This document shows positions 82-44,488 of a DNA stretch of 45,069 nt, piece after piece. Source of the stretch: an uncultured Pseudomonadales bacterium (lineage in GTDB: Bacteria; Patescibacteriota; Microgenomatia; UBA1400; PJMF01); the NCBI GenBank assembly GCA_964466145.1, contig CAYXMW010000001.1, forward strand, positions 1-45,069, in the 5' to 3' direction. The notes under the pieces are model-generated. The model did not search any database and was not told the DNA's origin. It worked only from the letters and a program-made list of their open reading frames with translations. Within the stretch, counting starts at the first letter, position 1; the number at the start of each line of letters is the position of its first letter. The position numbers and the translations under genes are program-made.

Positions 82-1059
82 TCACCGCAAGTATCGTTGT
101 ACGTTTGTGCTATGTTCTTCTAAATTCTTACCATAGTGTATATCACTATTTCTGCCATGTAAATAGAAAAAGTCTGCCGTTTTTAAAGGCTCCAGAGAAG
201 CCTTAATTGCGTCTAGACCAGGATTGCAGATTGGCTGGGGTGGCAAACCATAATTAAGATATGTATTAAAAGATGAATCTAGTTTCTTATCAATACTAGT
301 GGGTGGTTCCCACCAAGACTGAGTTTGCTCATCATAGCCCTTAATATACTGCAATGTAGCATCAGCCTGTAAGGCCATATTAATATCGTATCGATTCCAT
401 AAGATACCAGCCACATGACGCATCTCTTCGTATCCACGAGCTTCTCTTTCTACTATTGAAGCCATTACCAGAACATCATCGAAGCTTCGATTTGATTGTT
501 CAATCTCATTCTCTAAACCAAAGATAACTTTTTTCTCAAAATTACTCTGAATAACTCGATGAATTGTGGTGGCAGTAGACTCTTTGGAAAATAAATAAGT
601 ATCTGGAAAAATCCGGCCCTCTTGACCAACGGTCAAATCAAGAAATTCTTGAAGATCAAAACTATTAAAACCATACTCAACTAAACTAGTTGCTATTTGC
701 TCCCTGCGCCAACCCTCTAAAATTGTTACCCAAGTATCATTAGTTCCTTGAGTTAGCTTTAGAGCAATTTCGACCGGAGTCATGGATGGAGAAATTTGGA
801 ACGAGCCCGATTGGAGTTTTCCCTCAAGCCCTTTCTGCTTAACTGCCAATCGAAACATGATCGAGCTTCTAATCAAACCCTCATCTTTTAACCTAGAGGC
901 AATGATGCTCACCGCTTGTCCTCGAGGAATAACAAATTGAGTCTTAGCGACAGCACCTGAATTCATGGGTTGAGAGAAAAGGTAAAAATATCCTCCCAAA
1001 CCAACCACCAAAACCAACGACATCATTAAAATTGAGATGAGGGATTTTTTGAAAGACAT
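82..1059 (-). CDS. mltG: Endolytic murein transglycosylase, YceG/MltG family
   Basis: 325-aa ORF with an N-terminal TM anchor and YceG-type motifs (LQSGSFQI, ILEGW, ASIVEREA, YNTYLNYGLPPQPICNPG). It follows ruvX as in the conserved alaS-ruvX-mltG neighbourhood. Confidence 0.85.
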   Translation of the reverse strand: MSFKKSLISILMMSLVLVVGLGGYFYLFSQPMNSGAVAKTQFVIPRGQAVSIIASRLKDEGLIRSSIMFRLAVKQKGLEGKLQSGSFQISPSMTPVEIALKLTQGTNDTWVTILEGWRREQIATSLVEYGFNSFDLQEFLDLTVGQEGRIFPDTYLFSKESTATTIHRVIQSNFEKKVIFGLENEIEQSNRSFDDVLVMASIVEREARGYEEMRHVAGILWNRYDINMALQADATLQYIKGYDEQTQSWWEPPTSIDKKLDSSFNTYLNYGLPPQPICNPGLDAIKASLEPLKTADFFYLHGRNSDIHYGKNLEEHSTNVQRYLR

Positions 1060-1074
1060 GAAAAAAGTATATCA

Positions 1075-1458
1075 CTAATAATTAATATCCAGCCATTCTT
1101 GGAGAAAGTCGGCGGCGGCGTAATGATCAATCGGACCCTGGCGTTTTTTTAGCTTCATTGCTGAGGTGGCTAGTTTTTGGTGAACATTTTTAGAACTCAG
1201 AGTTTCATCTACAAACTCCAGTGGAATAGTGGTATTTTTTTCAAGCTCTTGCGCAAATATTTTAGTTCTTTGAGCCATCTTGTTTTCAGATAAACCCAAT
1301 AGGATTAGATTTATCTTCTCACTATCAATAATTTTCCCAATTTTTTTAAAAATTAAATCATCATTGTTTAAAATTGATAAAGGCTCAGCTAAAACATGCT
1401 TATTAACTGCCAACCCGATTCGTTGCGTTCCAAAATCTATGGCTAATATTTTTTTCAT
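1075..1458 (-). CDS. ruvX: Holliday junction resolvase-like protein RuvX/YqgF
   Basis: 127-aa ORF with the N-terminal ILAIDFGTQRIGLAV motif typical of the YqgF family. Starts 4 nt after the sortase stop. Confidence 0.85.
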   Translation of the reverse strand: MKKILAIDFGTQRIGLAVNKHVLAEPLSILNNDDLIFKKIGKIIDSEKINLILLGLSENKMAQRTKIFAQELEKNTTIPLEFVDETLSSKNVHQKLATSAMKLKKRQGPIDHYAAADFLQEWLDINY

Positions 1459-1462
1459 ATAA

Positions 1463-2413
1463 TTAAATGCTAACTAGCTCTGCTGTAACCACACCTCGTC
1501 GGAGATAAGTTCCCTCAGGAACACAAGTCACCAGCTTAAGTGTTCTCTTATCATATTGTTGAGCCAAAATATAAGTATCTTCAGGTTTGACATCGGTTTT
1601 GTCTGTGACCACATATTTATACCTAGCTCCGTCTTGAGTTAAGTAGATTACATCTCCTTTTTCCAGTGTCATAATGTAACTGAAGATTGAGTTATAGCGG
1701 CGAGGATTTTTTTCGCTGGGGTTATAAAACTGGCGTAAAACTGAATGACCAAAAATAACTGGTGATCCTAGCTCACCAGGAAAAGCTGTGCCAGGATAAG
1801 CGATTAAGCTTTCATCTAGGTTTGTACCGCCAATTTGAACTTGAGCAGCTTCTATCTCTAACTCAGGAATATCTAGAACATACATGGTATTATTCTGGAT
1901 TTTTTTCAAGATATCACTCCGACCATCATTAAACCAATTTGTTAAATTAGTGTAATCCAACTCAGTATCTAAAATTACTGGGCCAGACGTTGCTTTTGAA
2001 TCAGAACCCAATATATTTGAATCATACTTAACCTGAGCCACCACCAACGGCGTCACATCTAAAACATCTTCTTTGGGGATGGGTGTTTTTAATTGCTGTT
2101 GACTTAAATCTGGTAAAGACGAAATATAGTATTGAGCCAAAGGTGTAATTGCATTTCCCAGTAAAAATAATCCTACTCCAATGAAAACTATCGGTAGAAC
2201 TAAAGCGCCATATCTAATTGTTTTTGGCAAACGACGTCTAATTTTAGTTACTCGTTCTTTTTCTTCTTTCTGCTCAACCTTATTGCTTACTTGTACTTTA
2301 TCTAATTTTTTAGATATTTTTTTTTCAAGCTTATCTAAAGACAAATTTTTTTTCAAAGCTTGACGGTATAAGTCTATTAGTTGTGTGGAGGAAATTTGGC
2401 TTACTTGCTTCAC
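1463..2413 (-). CDS. Sortase family transpeptidase (membrane anchored)
   Basis: 316 aa: K/E-rich cytoplasmic head, one TM (YGALVLPIVFIGVGLFLLG), then sortase catalytic contexts VIFGHS (His), TLKLVTCVP (TLxTC Cys) and YLRRGVV (Arg). The GTG start overlaps the upstream stop as GTGA. Confidence 0.8.
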   Translation of the reverse strand: MKQVSQISSTQLIDLYRQALKKNLSLDKLEKKISKKLDKVQVSNKVEQKEEKERVTKIRRRLPKTIRYGALVLPIVFIGVGLFLLGNAITPLAQYYISSLPDLSQQQLKTPIPKEDVLDVTPLVVAQVKYDSNILGSDSKATSGPVILDTELDYTNLTNWFNDGRSDILKKIQNNTMYVLDIPELEIEAAQVQIGGTNLDESLIAYPGTAFPGELGSPVIFGHSVLRQFYNPSEKNPRRYNSIFSYIMTLEKGDVIYLTQDGARYKYVVTDKTDVKPEDTYILAQQYDKRTLKLVTCVPEGTYLRRGVVTAELVSI

Positions 2414-4599
2414 TGTAATTCTACCTTGGAAATATCCTTGGGAATATGAGCATAAAGTTTGACAGCTATACTCGGAATTAAATCAATCTTGACTGAATCA
2501 ATCCCATCTTTAGCTGTTAAAAACTTTTTAGCCTCATCAATACTTTTACCCAAGATATCTTGTTTTAATTCGTCAAAATTTAAATCTGGCTTTGCTTCTA
2601 CAGAAATATTAACTAATAGATGTACCTCTCCGGAAACCGGTGAATCTTGATCTGGAGAAGACATAATTTGCGGATCACTATTATCCAGGGTATAGCCATC
2701 GGGCACATCATCTTCAAGCACTTTTTTAGCTAAGGGTTTTAAGTCTTCTATATTGTAGGCTAAAGCTTGTGCTGTTATTGACAGATCAAGAATCACCGCA
2801 CCAATCTCATCGCCGGCTTCTGCATCAAATTGTTGATTGTCAACTTTATCAATATTTACTGATGCTAAATACTCTCCCTCACTTAAATTTTCTTCAATAT
2901 CATTTCGAGCTTCTTCTAATAATTTCTTTCTTAGTTCTTCAACCAACTGATCTAGATCACTTGCAGACACAACTCTGACCTCGCGACTAGAACCACCAGT
3001 AAATGTTTCTGCTACGGCTGCAGAATATGTGCCTGGATCAAAACTAGCTACTTGCAGCTCTACTTCTTTTTCTAAATTTGAATCTGCGCCAATATCAAGC
3101 GCTGTGACAGCTACGTTTTTTTTGCCATACTCTGTTTCTTTTCCACTAGAAGTTTCTTTTGTGCTGGCTGAAGCTACTTCTACACCCTCATCTAAAGTAA
3201 AAACTAAGCCACCTTTAGAAACCCTTGTGCCTTGGTCAAAAGTTTTAACCGCTTCTGTTTTGTTATAAAGAATAATCTCACCAATAGCTTGATCACCCAC
3301 TACTTCAACACCAGTTGTTTCCTTAGTTTTCTTTGCCGAAACTTTCTTCTCAATCGCATGAGCTGTTAAAACTAATTTGCCCGCACTCGTACTATCCTTA
3401 TCTGGATTAAGAGTAATAGTGGTTTCTTTTGAAATTAATTCTGTTGCCAATGACAGCTCAACAACCGCCTTAACTCCAGTAGTTAACCATATCCCAACTA
3501 TCAATAACAAAGCCAACACCCCAGCTAAAAAGCCACCAATAGCAAACGAGCGATGTTTTTTAAACCAATTAATAAATTTCATTTTTATTTTCGAAGATGA
3601 CTTATTTTTTAAATCAACTGAGTTCGGTAAGTCTACCTTATCTTTAAATTTAATTTCAGGTTTAATTTTTTTCTTAAGATCATTTAAGTTAACTGGTATT
3701 CCATAACTAGTAGCTTTAACAGGCGGAGCTTTCTGAGGATCAACTTCAACAGCCAAATTTTTAGCTTTTTTAATCTCCTTAATTACTTCTGATTGTTTTT
3801 TTACTGGTGGAATTGGTGACTTTTCAGCTTGAGATTTAACAGTTGATTTATTAACACTGGGAGTAGAACCCCCTCCTTGCTTTATAACTGCCTCTAAAAT
3901 AATTTCTTGATCTAATAAATCTACTGTGGGTGAATGAGTAAATGGGTGAGAATTAACCCAATCGTGACCAAGTAATAGTTGTTTTTGATCATTCAATTCG
4001 GAATTATCTAAGTCTAAAGATGAGATCATTATCTTTGCTGGCAACTTAATCTCTTTTTCCTGATGAGCATTTAGTCTTGCTAGAGCTTCGGCCATATCAG
4101 CCATAGTTTCACCAGAACGCCCCACATATTGAGTGCTTACTAATTTACCCTGAGTAATTAAACTCAAAAATAGCTCATACTGACTAAACTCAACTAAAAG
4201 CATCGAAAGACGAGGGTTTTCAACTATTAAATGCTTAGCCAAAGCTTCGGAAATCATTACAAATCCGACTGCACTTAAACCCAATCCCTCAGTAATAGCC
4301 TTTAATAAAGGTTTCTTTATCGCTATAACTCCTTGCTCATCAACCCAAGTGCGTGGCAAGCCAAAAACTGCATCATTAACTTTTTCTGACTGCTTACCAA
4401 GATCCTGGAGAGCTTTATCTGCTTGAGTAACAGCTTGCTTATCGTCACCATACTCATAAATCGATGACTTGTTTAAAATAGTAGTGCCTTGATCATTTTG
4501 CTGCCACAGCGCAGCCTGAATATTAGAATCTGACAGTAAAAGAGTAATGTATAAAGAAATAGCTGGTCGTTTAGTTTTAAAAACTGGTGGCAGACCCAT
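2410..4599 (-). CDS. Large bitopic membrane protein of unknown function: cytoplasmic FtsA/PilM-like region, K/P-rich linker, one TM, beta-rich ectodomain
   Basis: Long ORF (735 aa from TTG 4617; I prefer ATG 4599, which has TATAGT 6 nt upstream). N-terminal region (AISLYITLLLSDSNIQAALW...) resembles an actin-fold ATPase segment. TM is FAIGGFLAGVLALLLIVGIWL. The C-terminal ~340 aa is rich in V/E/T/G beta-type repeats. The domain calls are from memory and weak. Confidence 0.5.
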   Translation of the reverse strand: MGLPPVFKTKRPAISLYITLLLSDSNIQAALWQQNDQGTTILNKSSIYEYGDDKQAVTQADKALQDLGKQSEKVNDAVFGLPRTWVDEQGVIAIKKPLLKAITEGLGLSAVGFVMISEALAKHLIVENPRLSMLLVEFSQYELFLSLITQGKLVSTQYVGRSGETMADMAEALARLNAHQEKEIKLPAKIMISSLDLDNSELNDQKQLLLGHDWVNSHPFTHSPTVDLLDQEIILEAVIKQGGGSTPSVNKSTVKSQAEKSPIPPVKKQSEVIKEIKKAKNLAVEVDPQKAPPVKATSYGIPVNLNDLKKKIKPEIKFKDKVDLPNSVDLKNKSSSKIKMKFINWFKKHRSFAIGGFLAGVLALLLIVGIWLTTGVKAVVELSLATELISKETTITLNPDKDSTSAGKLVLTAHAIEKKVSAKKTKETTGVEVVGDQAIGEIILYNKTEAVKTFDQGTRVSKGGLVFTLDEGVEVASASTKETSSGKETEYGKKNVAVTALDIGADSNLEKEVELQVASFDPGTYSAAVAETFTGGSSREVRVVSASDLDQLVEELRKKLLEEARNDIEENLSEGEYLASVNIDKVDNQQFDAEAGDEIGAVILDLSITAQALAYNIEDLKPLAKKVLEDDVPDGYTLDNSDPQIMSSPDQDSPVSGEVHLLVNISVEAKPDLNFDELKQDILGKSIDEAKKFLTAKDGIDSVKIDLIPSIAVKLYAHIPKDISKVELQ

Positions 4600-4650
4600 A
4601 TTATTACTATACCTCAACTTAAACCCGAAGAATACTATTTTTATTTATCT

Positions 4651-6468
4651 CTACTTAAATTTAGCATAAACTCGACGAACACCAGCACTACACGATTGTT
4701 CTTTAAATAATCTAATCTTACCTATCTCACCTATCCTATTCACATGAGGACCACCACAAAATTCCTTAGAGATCCCATTAATCGTATAAACACTGACTTC
4801 ATCCGGGTATTTTTCTATAAAAAAAGCAATTGCTCCCTCGTCAAGAGCAGCTTGTTTACTCATGACCTGCTTAGTAACTGAAAGATCAGCCTCAATCCAA
4901 GTATTTATCTGTGTTTCTACTTTACTTAGCTCTTCTTTTGCTAAAGCTTGAGGATGAGAAAAATCAAAGCGTAATCGTTCACCGTTTATATTAGAGCCCT
5001 TTTGCTCAACATGAGCTCCTAAAATTTTACGAAGGGCGGCATGAAGTAAATGAGTTGCGGTGTGATATTTAACAGTCGCTTCAGATTGATCACCCAAACC
5101 ACCTTTAAACTTGCCAGTTGCTGCTTGACGAGATTGATCGGCGTGAGACTGTTTGAGCTTGTTAAAGCTATCTTCAATATTGTCTTCAATCTGAAGATTT
5201 TTCTGTTTTGCTTCTTCAATAGACATCTCTAAAGGAAAACCGTAGCTTTCATAAAGATTAAAAGCTGTTGCGCTAGTCAAATGATCCATAGTCTCTTTTT
5301 CAAAAACTCGCAAACCTTTACTTAAAGCTTTACCAAACTTTTGCTCTTCTATTTCAAAAATCTGCTGAATATTTTTTACTTGATCAATAACTTTTGGGTA
5401 AGCGACTTGATACATCTCTGCCACTACTGGCACTAATCCGGATACAAACTCATTTTCAATCCCGATCATCTGCCCATAGCGAATTGACCTTCTGATTAAA
5501 CGACGAGAGAAATAACCTTGCTCTTTATTAGATGGATAAACACTATCAGCAGCCAACATTACCGCTGCCTTCATATGATCAGCAATTACACGAAATGCTT
5601 GAGTGGTTTTTTTATCTTGACCATACTTTTGCCCAGAATTTTTTTCTAAATAACTAATTATTGGCGTAAACAACTCAGTCTTAAACAGATCGGGGTCATT
5701 ATTCATCGCTGCTAAAATTCGCTCAAAACCACCTCCAAAATCAATATTTTTATTTTCTAACTCTTCATAGCCCAGCTTTGTTTTGACATAAGTCATGAAC
5801 ACATTGTTGCCTATTTCTAGATATCGGCCACAATCACAGTTTAAATGACAAGACTGGTCTGAAAATTGTGAATTCTGATGATCTTTAGAATCGCTGGCAA
5901 AATCATAGAAAACCTCACTACCTGGACCACCTGGCTCTCCGTCTGACATATTAGCTGGTTCGCCTACCCGCGACCACCAATTTTCATTCCCATAGTAAAA
6001 AACTCGCTCATCAGTAATACCTTTTTGAGCAAAAAGTCCCTGCCAAATCTGAGCTGCTTCTTCATCACGAGGAATACCTAGTTCTTGATTACCTTCATAC
6101 ACCGTTACATAAAGTCTTTGTGGATTTAATCCACAAATATCAATAAAAAATTCAAAAATCCATTCCAGCTGTTCTTTTTTAAAATAGTCTCCAAAAGACC
6201 AATTACCTAACATCTCAAAAAAAGTAGTATGACGATTATCACCCACTTTCTCAATGTCCTGAGATCTGAAACACTTCTGTGAATCAACTACTCGTGTGCC
6301 TTTGGGGTGTGGCTGACCTAAAAAATATGACAGTAATGGCTGCATGCCTGAACCAGTAAAAAGAGTGGTTGGATCATTTTCTGGAACTAAAGAGTCTGAG
6401 GGTAAAATAGCATGCTTTTTTTGTGCAAAAAAATCTAGATATGCTTGACGAAGTTCATCTGGAGTCAT
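4651..6468 (-). CDS. alaS: Alanine--tRNA ligase, short form (catalytic plus minimal editing domain, no C-Ala domain)
   Basis: N-terminus MTPDELRQAYLDFFAQKKH and FTGSGMQP match AlaRS. Editing-domain motifs HTATHLLH and CGGPHV are present. The protein ends right after GVRRVYAKFK. ATG 6468 is preferred over GTG 6474. Confidence 0.9.
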   Translation of the reverse strand: MTPDELRQAYLDFFAQKKHAILPSDSLVPENDPTTLFTGSGMQPLLSYFLGQPHPKGTRVVDSQKCFRSQDIEKVGDNRHTTFFEMLGNWSFGDYFKKEQLEWIFEFFIDICGLNPQRLYVTVYEGNQELGIPRDEEAAQIWQGLFAQKGITDERVFYYGNENWWSRVGEPANMSDGEPGGPGSEVFYDFASDSKDHQNSQFSDQSCHLNCDCGRYLEIGNNVFMTYVKTKLGYEELENKNIDFGGGFERILAAMNNDPDLFKTELFTPIISYLEKNSGQKYGQDKKTTQAFRVIADHMKAAVMLAADSVYPSNKEQGYFSRRLIRRSIRYGQMIGIENEFVSGLVPVVAEMYQVAYPKVIDQVKNIQQIFEIEEQKFGKALSKGLRVFEKETMDHLTSATAFNLYESYGFPLEMSIEEAKQKNLQIEDNIEDSFNKLKQSHADQSRQAATGKFKGGLGDQSEATVKYHTATHLLHAALRKILGAHVEQKGSNINGERLRFDFSHPQALAKEELSKVETQINTWIEADLSVTKQVMSKQAALDEGAIAFFIEKYPDEVSVYTINGISKEFCGGPHVNRIGEIGKIRLFKEQSCSAGVRRVYAKFK

Positions 6469-6477
6469 AGACACAAA

Positions 6478-6813
6478 TTATACACCTTTGAACTGCTTTT
6501 GTTTTGCTTGTCGTTTATAGGTTCTTTTTTTACGCGGAGCTTTAGCTTTTTTTAATTCAACTGGTTCAACTTCTAATCTTTTTAAAAGCTCATCTTTAGC
6601 TACCTGGACCAAATCGCCCAAATTCTTAAACTTAGTGTTTTCACTCAACACTCCCTGATCAGCCAAATGCTGTTGGGCTTTTTCCCACTCATTGGCTAAT
6701 TTTTTTCTAGTCTTTTCTCCTTGCTTAGTACCAAATAAATAATAACCAACTACACCTGAAAAAAGACCTATTACAAAGCCTGGAGTAAACGAACTATGAT
6801 TATTTTTTTCCAC
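6478..6813 (-). CDS. YtxH-like small membrane protein
   Basis: 111 aa. GFVIGLFSGVVGYYLFGTKQGEKTRKKL matches the YtxH-type N-terminal helix plus G-x-x-x-R motif. GTG start with AAGGAAG SD. Follows a DUF948-like gene in the ytxG-ytxH order of Bacillus. Confidence 0.6.
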   Translation of the reverse strand: MEKNNHSSFTPGFVIGLFSGVVGYYLFGTKQGEKTRKKLANEWEKAQQHLADQGVLSENTKFKNLGDLVQVAKDELLKRLEVEPVELKKAKAPRKKRTYKRQAKQKQFKGV

Positions 6814-8309: not shown

Positions 8310-8375
8310 ATGTGCGGAGCACCTTTTATACCAGCTAAATTTTATTATAAATCTAAAATTAAGGGTCTAAAATGA
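8310..8375 (+). CDS. Mini-ORF A (21 codons, MCGAPFIPAKFYYKSKIKGLK), translationally coupled to lemA
   Basis: ATG 8310 is preceded by a GAGGA SD with 4-nt spacing. Stop TGA 8373-8375 overlaps the lemA ATG 8372-8374 (ATGA). It shares 22-nt and 23-nt identical blocks with mini-ORF B. Confidence 0.4.
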   Translation: MCGAPFIPAKFYYKSKIKGLK

Positions 8376-8938
8376 AAAAACCTTTCTTAACACTAGGAGC
8401 AGTAGTAGTAGTTTTAGGAATGTGGCTAATGGGTACCTATAATGGACTAGTGGGACTCGGTCAGCGAGTTGATAGTCAATGGGCTCAAGTAGAAACACAA
8501 TACCAACGTCGTTTTGACTTAATACCAAATTTAGTTGAGTCAACCAAAGGTTTCTTAACCCAAGAACAGGAAGTTTTTTCTAATATCGCTGAGGCTAGAC
8601 AAGGATATGCTGGTGCTGGCACTGCCAATGAAAAGGTCGCTGCAACTAACGAAATGGAATCAGCCTTAAGCAGACTATTAGTTATCGTAGAAAATTATCC
8701 TGAATTAAAATCTAACGAAACAGTTCAAGATCTAATGGTTGAGTTAGCTGGCTCTGAAAACCGAGTTAGCGTTGAACGAAAACGCTATAACGACACCGTC
8801 AAAGGATACAACGTTAAAGTTAAAACTTTCCCTACCATGATGGTGGCAAGTATGTTTGGTTATACTGAAAAACCATATTTTGAAGCAGTTGAGGAAGCAG
8901 AAGCTGCTCCAGCAGTAAATCTAGATTTAAATGATTAA
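8372..8938 (+). CDS. lemA: LemA family protein
   Basis: 188 aa with an N-terminal TM and LemA motifs (VDSQWAQVETQYQRRFDLIPNLVE, ENYPELKSNE). Confidence 0.85.
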   Translation: MKKPFLTLGAVVVVLGMWLMGTYNGLVGLGQRVDSQWAQVETQYQRRFDLIPNLVESTKGFLTQEQEVFSNIAEARQGYAGAGTANEKVAATNEMESALSRLLVIVENYPELKSNETVQDLMVELAGSENRVSVERKRYNDTVKGYNVKVKTFPTMMVASMFGYTEKPYFEAVEEAEAAPAVNLDLND

Positions 8939-10585: not shown

Positions 10586-11541
10586 TTTATCATTTCTTTC
10601 ATTTCAGCTGATACTGAAAGTTTCTCAATCTGCTGCCGAACTTTAATTTCTAATTCTTTTAAATCACTATTAACCAACTTTTCAATTTGATGTTTTTTCA
10701 TCAAAATCAGTATTTCTTCTACCCCATTTTCTTCAAAAACATTCTGTATTTCTTGATCAAGATAGTAGTAATAGAGAGTTTTTTTACCTTCGCGAACATC
10801 AGCGCCAACTGGTTTACCAGTTTTCTGCTCATCACCAAACAACCCTAGTTCATCATCTTTAATTTGAAAAATTAACCCCAAAGTTTTACCTAATTCATTT
10901 AATTGAACTACTAATTCTTCAGACTGTTCTGCCAAAACTGCACCAGCCATGAGTGGCAAACTCACTGTATAACTAGCTGTTTTGTCCATATACATCTGTA
11001 GGATGCTATCTTTAGTTACATCTCCACCACTCATCAACGCTAACTCTACATCATGCATCTCACCTAAAATTGTTCTACTTAACTGCTGAGAAAAAAGCTT
11101 TAATAATTTTCCAGATAACAACTCATAAGCTAAGAAGAAAATTAGGTCACCAGCGCAGATTGCGAAACTCTCTCCAAACCGCTGAGATTGCTGATATTTT
11201 TTCTGCTGTGCCAGTTGCTGATATTGAGAATGCAGAGTTTCTTGACCCCTGCGTAAATTATCTTGATCAATAACATCATCGTGAATCAAAAGACTAGTTC
11301 CGATCAATTCTAAAGCCGCAGCAACTTGTAAAACCTCTTGGTTGTATTTTTCACCAGACAATTTTTGATAAGTATTTATGAGCAAACTTCCCCGCAACAT
11401 TTTTCCACTTATGGCTAAAGGCATTAATCGCTCAAAAATATCTTTAGAAAAATAAGAATCATTCAACTCCTGTTGTTTACTGGGTAAAAAATTAATTAAA
11501 AAATTTGAAATTTCTTTTTTATATGAAATGAAATACTGCAT
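10549..11541 (-). CDS. Polyprenyl diphosphate synthase (trans-isoprenyl diphosphate synthase family)
   Basis: First aspartate-rich motif LIHDDVIDQD followed by RRG. Second motif region FQIKDDELGLFGDEQKTGKP. Confidence 0.8.
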   Translation of the reverse strand: MQYFISYKKEISNFLINFLPSKQQELNDSYFSKDIFERLMPLAISGKMLRGSLLINTYQKLSGEKYNQEVLQVAAALELIGTSLLIHDDVIDQDNLRRGQETLHSQYQQLAQQKKYQQSQRFGESFAICAGDLIFFLAYELLSGKLLKLFSQQLSRTILGEMHDVELALMSGGDVTKDSILQMYMDKTASYTVSLPLMAGAVLAEQSEELVVQLNELGKTLGLIFQIKDDELGLFGDEQKTGKPVGADVREGKKTLYYYYLDQEIQNVFEENGVEEILILMKKHQIEKLVNSDLKELEIKVRQQIEKLSVSAEMKEMINQFLDKITNRMR

Positions 11542-11578
11542 AAGCTATATCTTACACCACCTGACTTCTCAATAAAAA

Positions 11579-15298: not shown

Positions 15299-15355
15299 GA
15301 ATTCATCACTCTGCCCCTTGGCACTAGTTTTTTCACAGAGTAGTATGTGATCAAG

Positions 15356-15568
15356 ATGCTAAGCACCTCAGACAAATCCTATATTGAAGACAAACTAACT
15401 AAATTTAGAAGTGATATTCTAAACCATATCGATACTGTCTTGGGAGAAGTCAAAGCCATGAGGGAAGACTTTGCTATTCTCAACCATCGCAGTGCCAACA
15501 ACAAAAACTCAATTGAAAACCATGAAAACCGAATTAATACCCTAGAAGACAAACTTACAATTAATTAG
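15356..15568 (+). CDS. Small coiled-coil protein of unknown function (70 aa)
   Basis: ORF with heptad-like K/E/L pattern. TAGTAT (15341-15346) lies 9 nt upstream of ATG 15356, the same geometry as many genes here. Confidence 0.4.
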   Translation: MLSTSDKSYIEDKLTKFRSDILNHIDTVLGEVKAMREDFAILNHRSANNKNSIENHENRINTLEDKLTIN

Positions 15569-15616: not shown

Positions 15617-16030
15617 TTAACGAAGATATTTTTTAACTTCTCTTAAAACTTTTTTACTTCCTGCAAAAGTAATTTTCTGCATCGCCTCTTTATACTCAAA
15701 CCAGCCATAGTCAGATACTTCTGACTCTTGAATCACAACCTTCTTATCGCTCACCCAAGCTGGATAATAACTGACCGTTTTATGAAAAATCTGACCATCT
15801 TTTTGCGGATAATATTCTTCTTGAAAGATTATTGAATTGTCAACTTGATACTGCATAATGCCAGTTTCTTCTTCAAACTCGCGCTGAGCGGTTTCTAAAA
15901 ATGATTCCTCTCTCTCAGCATGACCTTTAGGAAAAGCCCAGTGGCCCTCAGTGTGTTGAATTAATAAAAACTCAATAACGTCGCCGTCTTTGTGCATTGG
16001 TACCAAACCAAAAGAAACATCTTTTTTCAT
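15617..16030 (-). CDS. Nudix hydrolase (Ap4A-hydrolase-like)
   Basis: Nudix box GHAEREESFLETAQREFEEETGI, with HWAFPKG upstream of it. Confidence 0.85.
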   Translation of the reverse strand: MKKDVSFGLVPMHKDGDVIEFLLIQHTEGHWAFPKGHAEREESFLETAQREFEEETGIMQYQVDNSIIFQEEYYPQKDGQIFHKTVSYYPAWVSDKKVVIQESEVSDYGWFEYKEAMQKITFAGSKKVLREVKKYLR

Positions 16031-16140: not shown

Positions 16141-16149
16141 AACAGTGAA

Positions 16150-16158
16150 ATTATAGCA
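16150..16158 (-). promoter_or_regulatory. Putative extended -10 promoter (TGcTATAAT) 9 nt upstream of the mini-ORF B ATG
   Basis: The minus strand reads tttGCTATAATttcactgttATG. Confidence 0.45.
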
Positions 16159-16731: not shown

Positions 16732-16740
16732 AAGATGGTC

Positions 16741-16749
16741 ATTCTAACA
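16741..16749 (-). promoter_or_regulatory. Putative extended -10 (TGtTAGAAT) 9 nt upstream of the CarD-like ATG
   Basis: The minus strand reads ggctaTGTTAGAATgaccatcttATG, with no SD. Confidence 0.4.
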
Positions 16750-18824: not shown

Positions 18825-18833
18825 AGATATTTT

Positions 18834-23966: not shown

Positions 23967-23971
23967 AAAAC

Positions 23972-25207: not shown

Positions 25208-25215
25208 AACTACTG

Positions 25216-32315: not shown

Positions 32316-33433
32316 TGTTTTTCCTGTTTACTAAAAATATAAGCTGCCATTATTGTAGCTAATGGCGCAGCTAAAACCAAGCCAATACTACCAACTAACA
32401 TCCGCACAATCTCTTCGGCAATTAGTTCATACTCTAAAATATCTAAAAAAGTTTTTTGACTATCAAAAAAAAGTAATAATAATGGTAAAGATGAACCTGA
32501 ATAAACTAATACTAAAGTATTAACCATTGAAGAAACGTGATCTTGTCCAACCCTCATCCCATCTTTAAATAACTCTAAAAAATTTATCTCAGGCTTTGCT
32601 TTTTTAAGTTGCTTGACTACAGATGCCTGACCGATAGTCACATCATCTAGAATTCCTAAAGTTCCGATAATAATACCTGCTAAAAGCAAACCTCTGATAT
32701 CGATCGCACCCTGTTTCTCTACTTGTAAAAATCCTGCTTCTTCAGAGGCAAAACCAGTCAAATAAGTAGCGTCTGCAAAATAAGTAGCCAACAAACCAGT
32801 GATAATCAAACCAATAAAAGTTGCTGCTATTCCAACGTGGGTTTTTTTATTAAACCCATGAGAAATATAAAAAGTGGTCGGAATAATAATTACCGAACCT
32901 AAAATTGCAGCTAAAATAGGGTTAATACCTTGGATAATTAATGGAATAATAAGTTTAAAAATAACCACAAATGAAGTTAACAACCCCAATAAAGATAGGA
33001 CACCCCAAATTCTCCCCACTAGTAACACCACTATTATAAATAGGAGCACTAGTATTAGTAAGCCACCACGCTTAACCATGCCATCAAGAGAATAAATCGT
33101 TTCTCCATTCATATCTTGCTGTGTAAAAATTTTAACTTTATCTCCTATTTGGTACTGTTGATACTTAGCACCAACTACTTCTAAGCCTGCGGCTGAGTTT
33201 TCAACTTTAATTAACTCATCCGTTTTCTCTCCTTTAGTAACTCTAATCTCTAACTCTTGAAACTCAACTAATTCATCTAAAAAACTTTTCTTACCACTAT
33301 CTATAATTTTAGTGATCACACCTTCCTTAGCCTCAATAGCAACTTCTTGAGCAAATACATCTGGAGAAATATTTATAAAAAAAACTATAAAAATAATTAA
33401 TGATAAAAAAATACGAATCAAAAGTCGTTGCAT
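32312..33433 (-). CDS. YibE/F-like polytopic membrane protein
   Basis: Signal/TM, about 110-aa extracytoplasmic domain, then multiple TMs (IIPTTFYISHGFNKKTH...). Its stop overlaps the start of the downstream fusion gene (ATGA). Confidence 0.55.
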   Translation of the reverse strand: MQRLLIRIFLSLIIFIVFFINISPDVFAQEVAIEAKEGVITKIIDSGKKSFLDELVEFQELEIRVTKGEKTDELIKVENSAAGLEVVGAKYQQYQIGDKVKIFTQQDMNGETIYSLDGMVKRGGLLILVLLFIIVVLLVGRIWGVLSLLGLLTSFVVIFKLIIPLIIQGINPILAAILGSVIIIPTTFYISHGFNKKTHVGIAATFIGLIITGLLATYFADATYLTGFASEEAGFLQVEKQGAIDIRGLLLAGIIIGTLGILDDVTIGQASVVKQLKKAKPEINFLELFKDGMRVGQDHVSSMVNTLVLVYSGSSLPLLLLFFDSQKTFLDILEYELIAEEIVRMLVGSIGLVLAAPLATIMAAYIFSKQEKQ

Positions 33434-33441
33434 AAAGTGTA

Positions 33442-33447
33442 ATTATA
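33442..33447 (-). promoter_or_regulatory. Putative -10 box (TATAAT) 8 nt upstream of the YibE/F-like ATG
   Basis: The minus strand reads gtcgTATAATtacactttATG, with no SD. Confidence 0.4.
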
Positions 33448-35062: not shown

Positions 35063-35068
35063 TATAAT
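35063..35068 (+). promoter_or_regulatory. Putative -10 box (TATAAT) 7 nt upstream of the malQ ATG
   Basis: atAGGGTATAATTAAgcttATG, with no SD. Confidence 0.45.
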
Positions 35069-35075
35069 TAAGCTT

Positions 35076-36452
35076 ATGTCTCTCAGGGGGAAAAGAATTG
35101 GCACAGTCTTATCGATGACGTCTTTAGTGAGTAAAAATGCTCAACCGGGCACCTTTGCAGCTGGAGAAAAATTTATTGATTGGTTAGCTAAATCTAAACA
35201 AAATGCGTGGCAGGTTTTACCACTTCATCAAACTCAACTAGAAAAAGGATCTGCTATTAAACATATCCCCTCACCCTATAAAGGCTATGGCATTGGATTA
35301 AACCCCCGCTTTTTAAGCAATGATGCACCTCAACCATCACCTGAACAACTAGCTGAATTTATTAAAAATAATAATTATTGGCTAGAAGATTATGTTTTAT
35401 TTTGCGCTCTACGAGATCAATTTGGAACCGACAGCTGGAATCAGTGGCCAGCTGATATTAGAAAAAGAAATAAAAATAGCATTAAAAAATGGCAAAAAAA
35501 ACTAGCTTCTCAAATCAATGCCCACATCAAAACTCAAGCACAACTACATCTTTCTTATAAGCAGCTTCAAAAAAAAGCTGCTAGCAAAGAGGTGATGCTG
35601 ATTGGAGATCTACCTCTTTATTTAAGCCTAAATAGTTCTCTGGTGTGGCAATTTCAAAATCTATTTGATATTAGCAAAGATGGAAAGATGCAACGAACAA
35701 GTGGCGTACCAATAGGTCCAAAATCCCATTTTGGAAGACAAATCTGGGGTCATCCTCTATATAAGTGGCAAGAGAGAAATTTAATCCCAAAAATAGAAAA
35801 ATTATTTGAAATTAGACTCAAGTACCTAGCTCAGCTTTTTGATTGGGTGAGAATCGATCATGCTAAAGGCCTCTTTACTTACGCTGCCATGGATTTAACT
35901 ACAAGAAATGCTGATCAGTATTTGCCAGGTCCTGGAAAAAAATTCTTAGAAAAAATAATTAATTTTGCCCATCAACAAAACTTAAACATTTATGCAGAAG
36001 ATACTGGGGATAAACTTAAAGACCTGAGGGAGTGTTTACAGTCTCACCAAATACCAGGCATTAAAATTTTCATATATGCTTACAATGAAAAGAAAAAGAG
36101 ATTCGTAGATCAATATCTAGAGGTTGATCAATATCAACCCAATAATTTTGCCTATACCACTACTCATGATACAGAAACCTTAATGGGTTACTTGCAACAA
36201 CTTTCAGCAACTGAAATCAATACTTTAATTAAAAAACTAAATATCAATAAGACTGATAATTTGAAACTTCTAGCTAAGCAAATCAAAGATAAAATAATTA
36301 ATTCCCCAGCAAAAATAGCACTCATTACTCTTCAAGATTGGCTGTATACTACCGAACGCATCAATATCCCTGGCACTGAAAAAGAAATCGATGATCCAAA
36401 CTGGAGATATCAAATGATCACGCCAATAGAAGACCTACCGACAAACCTATGA
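35076..36452 (+). CDS. malQ: 4-alpha-glucanotransferase (amylomaltase, GH77)
   Basis: GH77 catalytic contexts VRIDHAKG, YAEDTGD and TTTHDT. N-terminal RIGTVLSMTSL. Confidence 0.85.
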   Translation: MSLRGKRIGTVLSMTSLVSKNAQPGTFAAGEKFIDWLAKSKQNAWQVLPLHQTQLEKGSAIKHIPSPYKGYGIGLNPRFLSNDAPQPSPEQLAEFIKNNNYWLEDYVLFCALRDQFGTDSWNQWPADIRKRNKNSIKKWQKKLASQINAHIKTQAQLHLSYKQLQKKAASKEVMLIGDLPLYLSLNSSLVWQFQNLFDISKDGKMQRTSGVPIGPKSHFGRQIWGHPLYKWQERNLIPKIEKLFEIRLKYLAQLFDWVRIDHAKGLFTYAAMDLTTRNADQYLPGPGKKFLEKIINFAHQQNLNIYAEDTGDKLKDLRECLQSHQIPGIKIFIYAYNEKKKRFVDQYLEVDQYQPNNFAYTTTHDTETLMGYLQQLSATEINTLIKKLNINKTDNLKLLAKQIKDKIINSPAKIALITLQDWLYTTERINIPGTEKEIDDPNWRYQMITPIEDLPTNL

Positions 36453-36526
36453 AAAAATGCAGATCATCTTGCATACCAGCTAATTTTTCTGCACTCTGTT
36501 TGAAAAAGTCAGGGTCCGTAATATGA
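36449..36526 (+). CDS. Mini-ORF C (25 codons, MKKCRSSCIPANFSALCLKKSGSVI) bridging malQ and glgA
   Basis: ATG 36449 overlaps the malQ stop TGA 36450-36452. Its own TGA 36524-36526 overlaps the glgA ATG 36523-36525. It contains ATACCAGCTAATTTT (36473-36487), the core shared with mini-ORFs A and B. Confidence 0.35.
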   Translation: MKKCRSSCIPANFSALCLKKSGSVI

Positions 36527-38049
36527 AAATATTAATGGTCACCGCTGAAGCCGCTCCCTTTGTGAGGATAGGTGGACTCTCACAAGTTATCTACTTTTTA
36601 TCTAAAGAACTAATTAAACAAGGTCATGATGTGCGTGTTTTTATGCCAAAGTATGGGGTAATTAAAAAAACATTTGAAACAAAGCAAGTGGCAACAGATT
36701 TAGAAATACCATTCGGTAAACTTAATAAGAATAAAGTTTTGTGCAATGTGAAAGTTAACCATTCTCAGAAAAATTCTCCATCAACTTACTTCTTAGAAAA
36801 CAGGGAGTATTACGAGTTGCGAGCTAATGTTTTTGCTTATAAAGATGATCATCTTCGTTTTTTACTCCTATCAAGAGGTTGTTTAGAGTGGTTATCACTT
36901 GAACAACAAAAAAAAGATGGTTGGAAGCCAGATATTATCCATTGTCATGACTGGCATACTGGGTACCTGATTGATGAAATTCGCCGCAACCCTCGCTACT
37001 CAAAAAAATTCTCTAAGACACCAACTCTATACACTGTTCATAACTTTAAATACCAAGGTAATACAATCTTTAAATATAAATCTCCTCAAAAGCAAGACAA
37101 TGGCGTTAGACTATTAAATACTACTGATGAAAAGAAGCTTCTTAACCAAAACCCCCTATTACGAGGCATGCTCTATGCAGATTGGGTAAATACAGTTTCT
37201 AAATCTCATGCTCTAGAAGCAATGACCGCCGAGTATGGCGAAGGCCTCGAAAAAATTATTACCAAAATGAAGGGAAAGTTCTCAGGAATCTTAAATGGAT
37301 TAGACAATAAAGAGTTTAATCCTAGCACTGATCCGTTTTTAGAAAAAAACTACTCAGTTAATTCAATTGAAAAAAGAGCCTCTAACAAAACAGAGCTCCA
37401 AAAAGATTTTAATTTGCCTGAAGATGAAAATGCTTTTTTACTTGGATTTGTGGGTCGTCTTTCTAAACAAAAAGGCCTAGACATCTTAATCCCTGTCGTC
37501 AAAAGATTTTTGGAAGAATTTTCAGCTCAATTTATTTTTCTAGGCAGTGGAAATGGCGAATATAAAAATCAGCTAAATAAACTCCAAAAAAAATTCCCCA
37601 ATAATGTTAGCGTTCATCTTTATCCTGATTTTAAACTGCCTCGGAAAATATTTTCTGGAGCTGATGCAGTTCTAATACCTAGTATTTTTGAGCCAGGTGG
37701 AATTGTAGCTCTGGAAGCAATGAGGTATGGGGCAATCCCAATTGTTAGAAAAACTGGTGGCTTAGCTGACAGTGTCATTGACTTTGATCCGCAAACAAAA
37801 GCCGGAAATGGTTTTATTTTCGAACAATTTTCTCAGTGGTCATTGTTTGCTACTTTAGTCAGAGCCATGACCATCAACCAACAACCATCATTATGGAAAA
37901 AACTTGTTAGAAACGCCATGAAATCTGACTTTTCTTGGAGAGTAACTGCTGGTGAATATCAAAGTTTATATCAGCGAATCATCAAACAAAGAAAAAGATT
38001 TATCAGCATTAATCCACACTTAGCCTATGATCCTCTTCACAAAGACTAA
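36523..38049 (+). CDS. glgA: Glycogen/starch synthase (GT5)
   Basis: MKILMVTAEAAPFVRIGGLSQV (a KxGGL-type motif that reads RIGGL here), NGLDNKEFNP, and SIFEPGGIVALEAMRYG. Confidence 0.9.
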   Translation: MKILMVTAEAAPFVRIGGLSQVIYFLSKELIKQGHDVRVFMPKYGVIKKTFETKQVATDLEIPFGKLNKNKVLCNVKVNHSQKNSPSTYFLENREYYELRANVFAYKDDHLRFLLLSRGCLEWLSLEQQKKDGWKPDIIHCHDWHTGYLIDEIRRNPRYSKKFSKTPTLYTVHNFKYQGNTIFKYKSPQKQDNGVRLLNTTDEKKLLNQNPLLRGMLYADWVNTVSKSHALEAMTAEYGEGLEKIITKMKGKFSGILNGLDNKEFNPSTDPFLEKNYSVNSIEKRASNKTELQKDFNLPEDENAFLLGFVGRLSKQKGLDILIPVVKRFLEEFSAQFIFLGSGNGEYKNQLNKLQKKFPNNVSVHLYPDFKLPRKIFSGADAVLIPSIFEPGGIVALEAMRYGAIPIVRKTGGLADSVIDFDPQTKAGNGFIFEQFSQWSLFATLVRAMTINQQPSLWKKLVRNAMKSDFSWRVTAGEYQSLYQRIIKQRKRFISINPHLAYDPLHKD

Positions 38050-40292: not shown

Positions 40293-40819
40293 TTTTTTTT
40301 CATTATTAATTTAGCTCTATTTATTCTAGTTCCCACAGTTCCAGTAGGAATTCGTAAAATATCACTAATTTCACTATATGATTTATCTTCTAAAAAATAC
40401 AAACTCAAAGGCTCTCTGTATAAGAGTGGTATTTCTTCAAGACAATCATTCACCATTTTTTCAATTTCTTTTTTAGTATATTCTTCCTCAATATTGATGC
40501 CACTATCAAAATTGACATCTTCAAAAAGAGGTTTCTCTTTTTTATATTTATTAATTAAATTAATCGCTTCATTATGAACAATCCGATAAATCCAGCTTGA
40601 AAATTGACGCTTACTATCAAAGCTGTTGAGCTTAACATACGCCTTAATAAATGCATCTTGAACCACATCTGCAGCTCTATCGTCATCATTTACTAAGTAT
40701 TTCGCATATCTCATCAATTTTTTTTGATAGCGCTTCACTACTTCAGCATAAACTTCTTTATCTTTGTTTCTAGTAATTTCAATAACTTCCTCATCGGAAA
40801 GTTTTGATAAATCAAGCAT
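40268..40819 (-). CDS. ECF-type RNA polymerase sigma-70 family factor
   Basis: Region 2 (AADVVQDAFIKAYVKL...WIYRIVHNEAIN) and region 4 HTH (SYSEISDILRIPTGTVGTRINRAK). Confidence 0.85.
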   Translation of the reverse strand: MLDLSKLSDEEVIEITRNKDKEVYAEVVKRYQKKLMRYAKYLVNDDDRAADVVQDAFIKAYVKLNSFDSKRQFSSWIYRIVHNEAINLINKYKKEKPLFEDVNFDSGINIEEEYTKKEIEKMVNDCLEEIPLLYREPLSLYFLEDKSYSEISDILRIPTGTVGTRINRAKLIMKKKCQIKKVN

Positions 40820-40828
40820 TATTTTCTA

Positions 40829-40834
40829 ATTATA
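40829..40834 (-). promoter_or_regulatory. Putative -10 box (TATAAT) 9 nt upstream of the ECF sigma ATG
   Basis: The minus strand reads aaaaataTATAATtagaaaataATG, with no SD. Confidence 0.4.
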
Positions 40835-43107: not shown

Positions 43108-43162
43108 AAATCCTCCTTTGAACTAAGTCTATCATTAAAAATTTACCTGGCGTGAAGAATTT

Positions 43163-43224
43163 AAAAAAAAACGGACGACACTTGTTTTAAACTCCAAAAA
43201 ATCTGGAGACAGTAATTCGTCCGT
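43163..43224 (-). terminator. Rho-independent terminator with nested hairpin
   Basis: The minus strand reads ACGGACGA-(38 nt containing CUCCAGAUUUUUUGGAG)-UCGUCCGU followed by eight U. Lies about 74 nt downstream of the 347-aa gene. Confidence 0.6.
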
Positions 43225-43297
43225 AGTAGTAAACAAAAAAGTCGTCAAATAATCTGGCACTAGCTCTTTAAAGTTGAATAGAATTAAGATGCTTCCG

Positions 43298-44341
43298 CTA
43301 CTCCGTAATAGATTCTGCTAAATTTTGTGAGGTTTCCACAATTGAACCCAAATCAACTTTATGCAAAACTGTCTCCTTAGTTTCTTCACCAACTTTCATC
43401 TCAACTTTGACATCACCGTTCTCTAATGTCTCTCCACTAAGAGCTATCTGCCTAGCCCACTTATCACTCATTTCAGCTGGCATCCACTCACCATTATCAC
43501 CCAGTTGCATTTTTATCCAATCAGAATCACCCTCAATATGAGTGGCACCCTCAGACCAGGTTGGCTGAGAACTATGAACTAATAGTCTAACTTCATGAAT
43601 GGGACCATGAGGGCTGGCCACTACTTGCTTATCTGGAAAATGTTTATTATCTACTTTTGTACCAGCTGTATACCAAACTGAGGCTTTAGTCCTATCACTA
43701 AAACTTAATCTTTCATCAAACTGATTAACATGAGTTTCCAGCCCATCAGAGCTTAATTTAACTCCCTCAATATTTTGCTCTCTTAAGGTTTCAGGTAATA
43801 ATTGACCGCCACTTAAAGTTACTTCCACCATTCTTCTTTCACTATCAGGGCCAACTAATGGTTTTTGAACATCAAAACCAAAATATGCTCCTGAAGAATA
43901 ATGCTGCCCATCTACTTCTCCAGAGCCAATGTAACCATCAACTCTATTAAGATTGCCCCAATAATCTCTAGAATCTATTATTCCATTCCAAGCAGAAAAC
44001 TTAGCCTGAGCATCTGTGTCTTTATATCTAATATCACGAGTTTGATAGTTACCACTGTGACTTCTTTGAGCCCAATTATAGTCATCTCTTTCCATTCTAT
44101 CTTGCTGTTGAGGATCATTCCATAAATTATCAAATCTCTGAGCTAAATTTTCTAACTTATCTATGACCTCATCTTGTTTCATTTCTTCTGGAGTAGCTAT
44201 TTTTTCAGCCACCCACCTGGAAGCAGCATTTTTATCTGAATGCTCTTGCCCATATATACTCTCTTTTATTTTTTTTCTAAGACCAGACAACATTCCTTTA
44301 TGTTTTAATTCAACATCCTGACCACCCATTGTTTCAACCAT
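43298..44341 (-). CDS. Orphan 347-aa acidic, Trp/Asp/Gly-rich protein with no recognisable domain
   Basis: Long ORF with AGGGAG SD. No signal peptide or TM. I recognise no family motif. Confidence 0.55.
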   Translation of the reverse strand: MVETMGGQDVELKHKGMLSGLRKKIKESIYGQEHSDKNAASRWVAEKIATPEEMKQDEVIDKLENLAQRFDNLWNDPQQQDRMERDDYNWAQRSHSGNYQTRDIRYKDTDAQAKFSAWNGIIDSRDYWGNLNRVDGYIGSGEVDGQHYSSGAYFGFDVQKPLVGPDSERRMVEVTLSGGQLLPETLREQNIEGVKLSSDGLETHVNQFDERLSFSDRTKASVWYTAGTKVDNKHFPDKQVVASPHGPIHEVRLLVHSSQPTWSEGATHIEGDSDWIKMQLGDNGEWMPAEMSDKWARQIALSGETLENGDVKVEMKVGEETKETVLHKVDLGSIVETSQNLAESITE

Positions 44342-44488
44342 AATAACTCCCTAAAGATATACTATTACTACCATAGTACTAAAAATTAAATTTTTTATAA
44401 ACAAGTGACTGGATTTTGTTTTTGACTTGGTCAGACATTGGTTTCATTATAATCTGAAATGAATTGGATTTATTTACCCAAACCAATC

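Follow-up and report, generated by a model that had tools for sequence, protein, structure and literature searches.

Positions 1 to 45,069 of the contig CAYXMW010000001.1, given in nucleotides (nt) and called the window, form a tightly packed 45-kb stretch with a GC content of 36% and about 45 genes. About a third of these genes (29 to 40%) carry a −10 box 6 to 9 nt before the ATG. An earlier note, made from the sequence alone, had listed 18 such hexamers and read them as the Pribnow boxes of leaderless genes; all 18 are confirmed in hexamer, strand, spacing, and ATG, and all 18 listed starts are ATG codons. Most of these hexamers are likely −10 elements placed for leaderless or near-leaderless mRNAs, beside a separate class of genes led by Shine-Dalgarno (SD) sites. 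Position and enrichment of the hexamers, their sigma-70 promoter geometry, their conservation in relatives, and their near exclusivity with SD sites are observed directly in the DNA, and they support the Pribnow-box reading.

Position, promoter geometry, and conservation of the hexamers

For the enrichment tests, the first ATG of each long open reading frame (ORF) was taken as the gene start, and the start choices of the earlier note were excluded. Spacing is the number of nt between hexamer and ATG, and a strong hexamer matches TATAAT at at least 5 of its 6 positions. With these starts, TANNNT is found at spacings of 6 to 9 nt in 18 of 45 genes, compared to 4.5 expected (binomial p = 1.2e-7); the expected rate of 0.10 is the TANNNT frequency over all 1391 ATGs of the window. 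Strong hexamers precede 13 of the 45 genes at these spacings, compared to 1.1 expected (p = 5.5e-11). Measured against spacings of 10 to 60 nt in the same upstream regions, the counts are 19 versus 6.2 for TANNNT and 13 versus 1.2 for strong hexamers. The strong hexamers of the window show two spacing classes, 6 to 9 nt and 29 to 38 nt, with nearly none at 0 to 5 or 10 to 28 nt. Chance alone would yield about 4 to 5 of the 18 sites, and therefore not every listed site need be functional.

The nearest genomes by their alanyl-tRNA synthetase (AlaRS) are bins labeled Saccharibacteria, Parcubacteria, Uhrbacteria, Woesebacteria, and similar, and the window's enzyme is about equidistant (45 to 62% identity) from many classes of the candidate phyla radiation (CPR). 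Since these AlaRS neighbors are mostly CPR bins, the organism was treated as Patescibacteria/CPR-like. A CPR-wide set of 73 CPR-like loci with 1090 genes, with 7 non-CPR loci alongside, was run through a pipeline identical to that used for the window. In this set, TANNNT occurs at frequencies of 0.11, 0.066, 0.066, and 0.056 at spacings of 6, 7, 8, and 9 nt, respectively, compared to a background of ~0.023, and the excess of hexamer genes amounts to ~20%. Sorted by locus label, the peak comprises 29% of genes compared to a 10% background in Saccharibacteria, 23% compared to 7% in Parcubacteria-type loci, and 43% compared to 13% in Microgenomates-type loci. The 7 non-CPR loci show a flat TANNNT distribution.

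The possibility that hexamers containing TAA or TAG themselves create "first ATGs" was addressed with the first ATGs of 2461 shadow ORFs, which show no peak. The SD-rich loci among the tkt matches (63 genes) were too few for a negative control, and Clostridium acetobutylicum pSOL1 (GC content of 31%; 154 genes) was used instead with the same script. Here, TANNNT stands at 6 to 9 nt in 5% of genes, strong hexamers are found in 2.6%, and an SD core is found in 57%. Although pSOL1 is richer in AT than the window, TANNNT is depleted 5 to 9 nt before its ATGs, forming a trough, and the difference between window and plasmid is significant (Fisher test, p = 5e-8). If its claim were wrong, the earlier note had expected a flat genome-wide distance distribution after correction for AT content; within the window and the CPR-wide set, the distribution has a sharp peak. 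This peak is not accounted for by AT content, by stop codons, or by the choice of starts.

Alignment of 309 hexamer-bearing regions of the CPR-wide set on their hexamers reveals further bases in fixed places. A TGn extended −10 element is present in 30% of these genes, compared to 11% at control hexamers further upstream. T and G are enriched at positions −3 and −2 and T at position −5 relative to the hexamer, and T, T, and G are enriched at positions −23, −22, and −21, which corresponds to a −35 element of the TTG type, separated from the hexamer by 17 nt. Judged by these bases, the hexamers have the geometry of sigma-70 promoters rather than of a translation signal. In the window, matches to the −35 element average 3.17, compared to 2.53 at random TANNNT (p = 0.003). 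TGn, which the earlier note had attributed to several of its sites, is present at 4 of 18 (mltG, mini-ORF B, the CarD-like gene, and the MFS transporter), with ~1 expected. The last 2 to 5 nt before the ATG are rich in pyrimidines in the hexamer genes of the window (p = 0.005 to 0.014), with p = 0.03 for a pyrimidine at position −1, and the A of the ATG would therefore be the first purine available for initiation. Four divergent intergenic regions of 43 to 91 nt (polyprenyl synthase/M29, CarD/BlaI, membrane protein/dus, and prs/LCP) contain no other −10 candidate and leave no room for other promoters.

Three close relatives with 80 to 83% identity (L081 to L083) were obtained from a metagenome scan with the transketolase, and one of them, L082, is mostly syntenic with the window. 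The hexamers of tkt, the nuclease, the CarD- and BlaI-like genes, the membrane protein, and dus are kept at 6 to 9 nt in these loci; for the MFS transporter, the position is kept and the sequence changes from TAGAAT to TAAAAT. In 13 pairwise comparisons covering 7 genes, 77 of 78 hexamer positions are identical (p = 3e-13), compared to 58% of the first six spacer positions and 63% of a 21-nt stretch located further upstream. Conservation likewise extends to positions −3 to −1 in these comparisons, and the spacers change in both sequence and length among the three relatives.

The gene alaS allows a much wider comparison. Of 70 CPR-like loci, 48 carry TANNNT 5 to 9 nt ahead of the alaS ATG, 38 of them as a strong hexamer and 27 together with TGn (modal spacing, 7 nt), regardless of whether the upstream neighbor is divergent, distant, or 9 to 24 nt away. 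The non-CPR loci found in the same search have an SD site before alaS. On these sequences, the same architecture appears to be present across the CPR, with alaS as a conserved example.

Hexamers and SD sites are nearly mutually exclusive, an SD core preceding 1 of 16 hexamer genes and 16 of 29 other genes (p = 0.0012). The listed starts had been described as free of purine-rich SD sites, which holds overall apart from a possible GAGGT 11 nt before the gene for a protein of 729 amino acids (aa). Clear SD sites had been ascribed to about 15 other genes, and ~16 to 17 indeed have an SD core at 3 to 11 nt. SD-led genes such as yqeY, DUF948, and fba have their own −10 box 29 to 38 nt upstream, which is repeated in their orthologs; in the window, such boxes precede the ATGs of DUF948 (7084), yqeY (8214), fba (31130), prs (27624), and zf207 (42169). 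The 5′ untranslated regions (UTRs) of these genes would therefore measure ~22 to 30 nt, just enough for an SD site, and the distances from promoter to ATG thus form two discrete classes. The hexamer and SD classes are distinct, as claimed, but the window has more than two initiation architectures, since there are also tightly coupled genes without a signal and a few leadered genes without an SD site. The tightly coupled genes for TPM, an MTase, a 567-aa protein, and a 162-aa protein have no hexamer. Three unlisted weak hexamers, before ruvX, HTH25, and DsbD_TM, look like background.

Individual sites and their gene context

The 18 sites are given below from hexamer to start codon, with the spacing to the ATG and the assessment of each.

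1057 to 1071, minus strand: mltG/YceG (Pfam YceG); TGaTATACT, 6 nt; weak support, with TGn present and a poor −35 element
4597 to 4611, minus strand: gene for a 729-aa protein; TATAGT, 6 nt; ambiguous, with a GAGGT overlapping the hexamer as a possible SD site at 11 nt
6466 to 6482, minus strand: alaS; TATAAT, 8 nt; strongly supported; the TAA inside the hexamer ends the upstream YtxH-like gene
11539 to 11554, minus strand: polyprenyl synthase; TAAGAT, 7 nt; moderate support; shared divergent intergenic region of 37 to 58 nt
11585 to 11602, plus strand: M29 aminopeptidase, alternative ATG at 11600; TACAAT, 9 nt; plausible; −35 element CTGACT with an 18-nt spacer
15341 to 15358, plus strand: 70-aa ORF (putative gene); TAGTAT, 9 nt; promoter-like, with the best −35 element of the set (TTGGCA, 17-nt spacer)
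16138 to 16158, minus strand: mini-ORF B (putative gene of 37 codons); TGcTATAAT, 9 nt; strong extended −10 element; TGA overlaps the NUDIX ATG
16729 to 16746, minus strand: CarD-like gene; TGtTAGAAT, 9 nt; strongly supported
16810 to 16825, plus strand: BlaI-like repressor; TACAAT, 7 nt; supported; kept in L082; divergent intergenic region of 91 nt
18819 to 18836, plus strand: MFS transporter; TGcTAGAAT, 9 nt; supported
20861 to 20875, minus strand: PD-(D/E)XK nuclease; TAGAAT, 6 nt; TAG is the tkt stop codon; supported, operon-internal
22703 to 22718, minus strand: tkt; TACAAT, 7 nt; abuts the TAG stop codon of metK; supported, operon-internal
25205 to 25221, minus strand: 399-aa membrane protein; TATAAT, 8 nt; supported; kept in L081 and L082
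25262 to 25277, plus strand: dus; TATAAT, 7 nt; supported; kept in L082
27653 to 27670, plus strand: LCP (LytR-CpsA-Psr); TACAAT, 9 nt; plausible, context dependent; divergent intergenic region of 43 nt
33431 to 33447, minus strand: YibE/F-like gene; TATAAT, 8 nt; plausible; no SD site
35063 to 35078, plus strand: malQ; TATAAT, 7 nt; plausible; no SD site; public gene call with the same start (458 aa)
40817 to 40834, minus strand: ECF sigma factor; TATAAT, 9 nt; plausible; no SD site; public gene call with the same start (183 aa)

By estimate, 12 to 14 of the 18 sites are genuine. The strongest support is found for alaS, tkt, the nuclease, the CarD- and BlaI-like genes, the MFS transporter, the membrane protein, and dus. 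The sites of LCP, YibE/F, malQ, the ECF sigma factor, M29, and polyprenyl synthase, judged by means other than conservation, are plausible, and those of mltG and the 729-aa gene are doubtful.

The best-supported sites combine a constant hexamer with changing surroundings. TGtTAGAAT at 9 nt recurs unchanged before the CarD-like gene of L082 and L083, with a varying spacer, and before the MFS gene of L082, TAAAAT stands at 8 nt with the rest of the upstream region diverged. The TACAAT of tkt is kept in all three relatives at 7 to 9 nt, and the sequence upstream of it differs in L081 and L083. The tkt start at 22705, chosen with the help of the hexamer, agrees with Pfam Transketolase_N, which matches from residue 7, and with the orthologs, which align from residue 1. 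The TAGAAT of the nuclease is likewise kept in L081, L082, and L083, with varying spacers of 6 to 7 nt. In two of these loci, ~1.6 kb lie between tkt and the nuclease (L081, 7476 to 9125; L082, 11831 to 13462). Just upstream of the nuclease in both, the sequence reads ...IIEK(T/I)STLF and a stop codon, resembling the tkt C terminus, and the TAGAAT including that stop is still kept. The 67-nt divergent region between the membrane protein and dus holds the hexamers of these two genes only. LCP is the first gene of its unit in the window; in L082, it overlaps a different upstream gene by ATGA and has no hexamer. The architecture of LCP thus depends on gene context.

For the remaining genes, the comparison is thinner. 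A distant ortholog of the polyprenyl synthase in L122 has TATACT at 8 nt. The first ATG of M29 (11579) has neither hexamer nor SD site before it, and the Pfam match begins at residue 15 of the longer form. The 70-aa ORF has no Pfam match, and neither it nor the mini-ORFs have credible matches in the related loci. For mini-ORF B, the TGcTATAAT could be no more than the promoter from which the NUDIX mRNA is made.

Four of the listed genes (alaS, tkt, the nuclease, and mltG) begin 9 to 15 nt after a codirectional gene. At all four, the hexamer had been described as overlapping or abutting the preceding stop codon. This is correct for alaS, where TAA lies inside TATAAT; for the nuclease, where TAG forms the first three bases; and for tkt, which abuts TAG. 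It does not apply to mltG, where the TAG of ruvX is 3 nt upstream and the TGA between this stop codon and the hexamer forms the TGn element. Across the CPR-wide set, genes at most 25 nt from the upstream gene have strong hexamers in 8.5% of cases, compared to a background of 2.6% (about threefold). Hairpins resembling intrinsic terminators occur at chance level in the window (12 compared to 12.3 and 14 compared to 13.1 in shuffles; positions 1 to 40000), so that read-through from upstream genes is likely besides internal initiation. A chance-level count points to read-through on a wide scale or to termination of a different kind.

A leadered and SD-led contrast case is metK, with AGAGG before its ATG at 23825, an SD site that is retained in L081 and L082. 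Its leader contains the only Rfam match of the window, and the window has no tRNA genes.

23862 to 23967, minus strand: SAM riboswitch in the metK 5′ leader; Rfam RF00162 with 46 bits, exceeding the gathering score

Two paralogous leader mini-ORFs were found at 8311 to 8376 on the plus strand (MCGAPFIPAKFYYKSKIKGLK and a stop codon) before LemA and at 16027 to 16140 on the minus strand (MHMVLFIPAKFYTMHSIFYTNYFFTKSRVRKNIKGLK and a stop codon) before NUDIX. Each ends in a TGA that shares bases with the start codon of the gene behind it (ATGA). The two leaders share the DNA stretches CTTTTATACCAGCTAAATTTTAT and TTAAGGGTCTAAAATGAAAAAA, and the NUDIX leader contains two tandem copies of a ~38-nt unit. 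These leaders, not found in the relatives, could be a regulatory leader of the upstream-ORF type or a small repeated element.

Pfam agrees with the gene names of the earlier note across the window. The genes backed by Pfam encode YceG/MltG, RuvX, a sortase, the 605-aa AlaRS, YqeY, LemA, the polyprenyl synthase, and M29 and M24 peptidases; NUDIX, CarD-like, BlaI, DsbA/DsbD, MFS transporter, and PD-(D/E)XK nuclease proteins; transketolase, MetK, Dus, phosphoribosylpyrophosphate (PRPP) synthetase, LCP, FBPase, class II aldolase, and YibE/F; and a DEAD helicase, MalQ, GlgA, a phosphorylase, and the ECF sigma factor. For the glycogen synthase (36523 to 36537, plus strand), the public gene call of 504 aa starts at the ATG at 36535, and the form from the first ATG at 36523 has 508 aa; hexamer and SD site are both missing before either ATG.

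The AlaRS of the window (4651 to 6468, minus strand) has only 605 aa, consisting of the catalytic domain and tRNA_SAD. Each of the 80 related loci has this short form, among them a few non-CPR genomes labeled Spirochaetales, Sphaerochaetaceae, Pleomorphochaeta, and Desulfuromonas. The window's nearest relatives in this set (L001 to L003, L006, L009, L013, and others) are bins labeled "uncultured Pseudomonadales/Gammaproteobacteria" with the short AlaRS of CPR type, and these labels look wrong. Extension of the window by exact-protein lookup gave no record for mltG, and the contigs carrying the 347-aa gene overlap the window and add less than 1 kb. Contigs nearly identical to the window are present in the JGI samples 3300031645 and 3300031601.

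Proposed initiation mechanism and alternative explanations

Where transcription starts and how these mRNAs are translated is proposed here by analogy with the established leaderless genes of Actinobacteria and Deinococcus. A housekeeping RNA polymerase of the sigma-70 type would recognize the −10 or extended −10 element, several with TGn and most with a weak −35 element. Transcription would start at the A of the ATG or, at spacings of 8 to 9 nt, 1 to 3 nt before it. The resulting mRNAs would have no SD leader, and the ribosome with initiator tRNA would bind the 5′-terminal AUG without pairing between SD and anti-SD sequences. The other genes of the window would use a short leader with an SD site, with the −10 box at 29 to 38 nt, or tight coupling to the preceding gene, and rarely a leader without an SD site. 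Some promoters would be located on or next to the upstream stop codon because intergenic space is minimal, so that alaS, tkt, and the nuclease could be transcribed independently as well as by read-through.

Several observations weigh against this proposal. The −35 elements of the window are weak, and a generic scan for two-hexamer promoters finds fewer sites than in shuffles (48 compared to 62 and 50 compared to 65); the signal therefore resides only in the position relative to the ATG. The pyrimidine at position −1 is not significant CPR-wide (p = 0.26) and is therefore kept only as weak support. A spacing of 9 nt, found at 7 of the 18 sites, is near the outer limit for start-site selection in Escherichia coli, and some transcripts may therefore carry a leader of 1 to 3 nt. 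The hexamers before the closely linked genes of the CPR-wide set show TGn and −35 features near background on average, and 8 of 27 strong hexamers before such genes overlap the upstream stop codon, so that part of the operon-internal excess is a stop-codon effect. The earlier claim of operon-internal leaderless sites therefore holds firmly for just three genes of the window, alaS, tkt, and the nuclease, whose sites are conserved; that of mltG is not. Orthologs of mltG have the hexamer in 4 of 17 loci, several of those in Saccharibacteria having GGAGG instead, and orthologs of the 729-aa gene have it in 0 of 7, which is at background, as for ruvX (1 of 10) and the HTH_25 protein (3 of 10). The three loci closest by AlaRS, L001 to L003, show little hexamer signal (11% of 46 genes); their alaS (in L001 and L002) and yqeY nonetheless keep the expected architectures. 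The extent of leaderless initiation may vary between neighboring lineages, or the start calls in these three loci may be poor.

One alternative accepts the promoters as real and takes the mRNAs as not strictly leaderless, with transcription starting 1 to 3 nt upstream of the ATG or with the true start codon further downstream behind a normal leader. Starts before the ATG would suit the spacings of 8 to 9 nt at 11 of the 18 sites and the purines at positions 7 to 8 after the hexamer in some spacers (e.g., LCP, the ECF sigma factor, and M29), and they fit poorly with spacers that are pyrimidine rich directly before the ATG. Downstream start codons conflict with tkt and alaS, whose ortholog alignments and Pfam domains reach residues 1 to 7 of the proposed N termini, and normal leaders conflict with the lack of an SD site just upstream of these ATGs. 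Leaders of a few nt are, moreover, usually counted as leaderless. This alternative appears unlikely.

It is very improbable that TAnnnT is no promoter but a non-SD signal for translation, read on mRNAs that are leadered or polycistronic and comparable to the "group B" motif of Bacteroidota, which is A/T rich. Such a role could account for hexamers before some closely linked genes (alaS, tkt, the nuclease, and mltG) and for the missing TGn/−35 signature before such genes CPR-wide, and some Parcubacteria are reported to have no anti-SD motif (PMC9297842). Against such a signal stand the TATAAT consensus, accompanied by TGn and by a TTG across a 17-nt spacer, the same consensus 29 to 38 nt upstream of SD-led genes, and the divergent regions of 43 to 91 nt with no other −10 candidate. 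The motif is also missing before the coupled TPM, MTase, 567-aa, and 162-aa genes and before the operon-internal LCP of L082. That the whole pattern arose by chance from a high AT content, with the count raised by stop codons (TAA and TAG open in the manner of TAnnnT) and by start codons chosen with the hexamer in view, is scarcely credible. The ~4.5 TANNNT matches expected in 45 genes, the two hexamers containing an upstream stop codon, the 4 to 5 starts chosen in the earlier note, the background-like weak hexamers of ruvX, HTH25, and DsbD_TM, and the nonconserved mltG and 729-aa sites all leave some room for it. As a full explanation, chance is largely refuted by an enrichment that survives unbiased starts (p = 1e-7 and 5e-11), the shadow ORFs, and the AT-richer control and by the footprints of the hexamers in relatives.

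Relation to known leaderless systems and implications

A TANNNT whose first T is located ~12 bp ahead of the start is an established mark of leaderless genes (PMC3160421 and PMC6028130). Such "TA-led" genes of Actinobacteria and Deinococcus-Thermus, described by Zheng et al. in 2011 (PMC3160421), correspond to group C of GeneMarkS-2 (PMC6028130), and leaderless mRNAs have been mapped experimentally in Mycobacterium tuberculosis (PMC3898074) and Deinococcus deserti (PMC4007540). Zheng et al. report average TA-led shares of 19% in Actinobacteria and 39% in Deinococcus-Thermus and describe full TATAAT-like hexamers in low-GC genomes (PMC3160421). The window resembles these systems in having TANNNT/TATAAT 6 to 9 nt before the start with no SD site there, in the SD sites kept by its other genes, and in the share of genes involved (29 to 40% in the window and ~20% excess CPR-wide). 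In contrast to Actinobacteria and Deinococcus, its host is Patescibacteria/CPR-like and AT rich (36% GC) and has a tiny genome. Its hexamers are full and TATAAT-like, often with TGn, unlike the degenerate TAnnnT of the high-GC phyla, and several of its promoters extend into the stop codon that ends the gene before them, unlike those of the TA-led systems.

Two other systems show partial similarity. The extended −10 promoters of low-GC Gram-positive bacteria share TGnTATAAT with a weak −35 element but are normally located tens of nt upstream of an SD-led start. Group B Bacteroidota likewise have many genes without an SD site, and their motif, which is not a promoter, precedes all genes including operon-internal ones (PMC6028130). 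The motif of the window, in contrast, has promoter geometry and is missing from tightly coupled genes, which places it outside group B.

The mechanism itself is known. A literature search, which was not exhaustive and is no proof that the matter is unknown, found no report of leaderless genes for Patescibacteria, CPR, Saccharibacteria, Parcubacteria, or TM7x. A set of 188 transcription start sites (TSS) of TM7x, attributed to PMID 35975994, is used in PMC12641261; the TM7x transcriptome preprint belonging to this set makes no mention of TSS, promoters, or UTRs. Annotation pipelines based on GeneMarkS-2 may already model leaderless starts.

Patescibacteria, which have reduced ribosomes, make up a very large share of bacterial diversity and are for the most part uncultured, and their initiation of transcription and translation is almost unstudied. 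Somewhat more probably than otherwise, leaderless initiation is a radiation-wide and probably ancestral trait of the Patescibacteria/CPR, used by ~20 to 40% of genes as in Actinobacteria and Deinococcus, with essential genes of the alaS type fixed as leaderless across classes and promoters routinely placed in the region of the preceding stop codon for genome compaction. If true, this would tie in with the reduced ribosomes and with the loss of the anti-SD motif reported for some Parcubacteria (PMC9297842), and gene-start calling in metagenome-assembled CPR genomes should use a leaderless model. A leaderless third of genes would improve the annotation of start codons and operons in such genomes, and the class predicts promoter positions, which would be useful for the new genetic systems of Saccharibacteria; alaS, tkt, and the CarD-like gene offer conserved test cases. 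The finding would add a deep-branching, AT-rich lineage to the heavy users of leaderless initiation and bears on the idea that this is an old mode of initiation.

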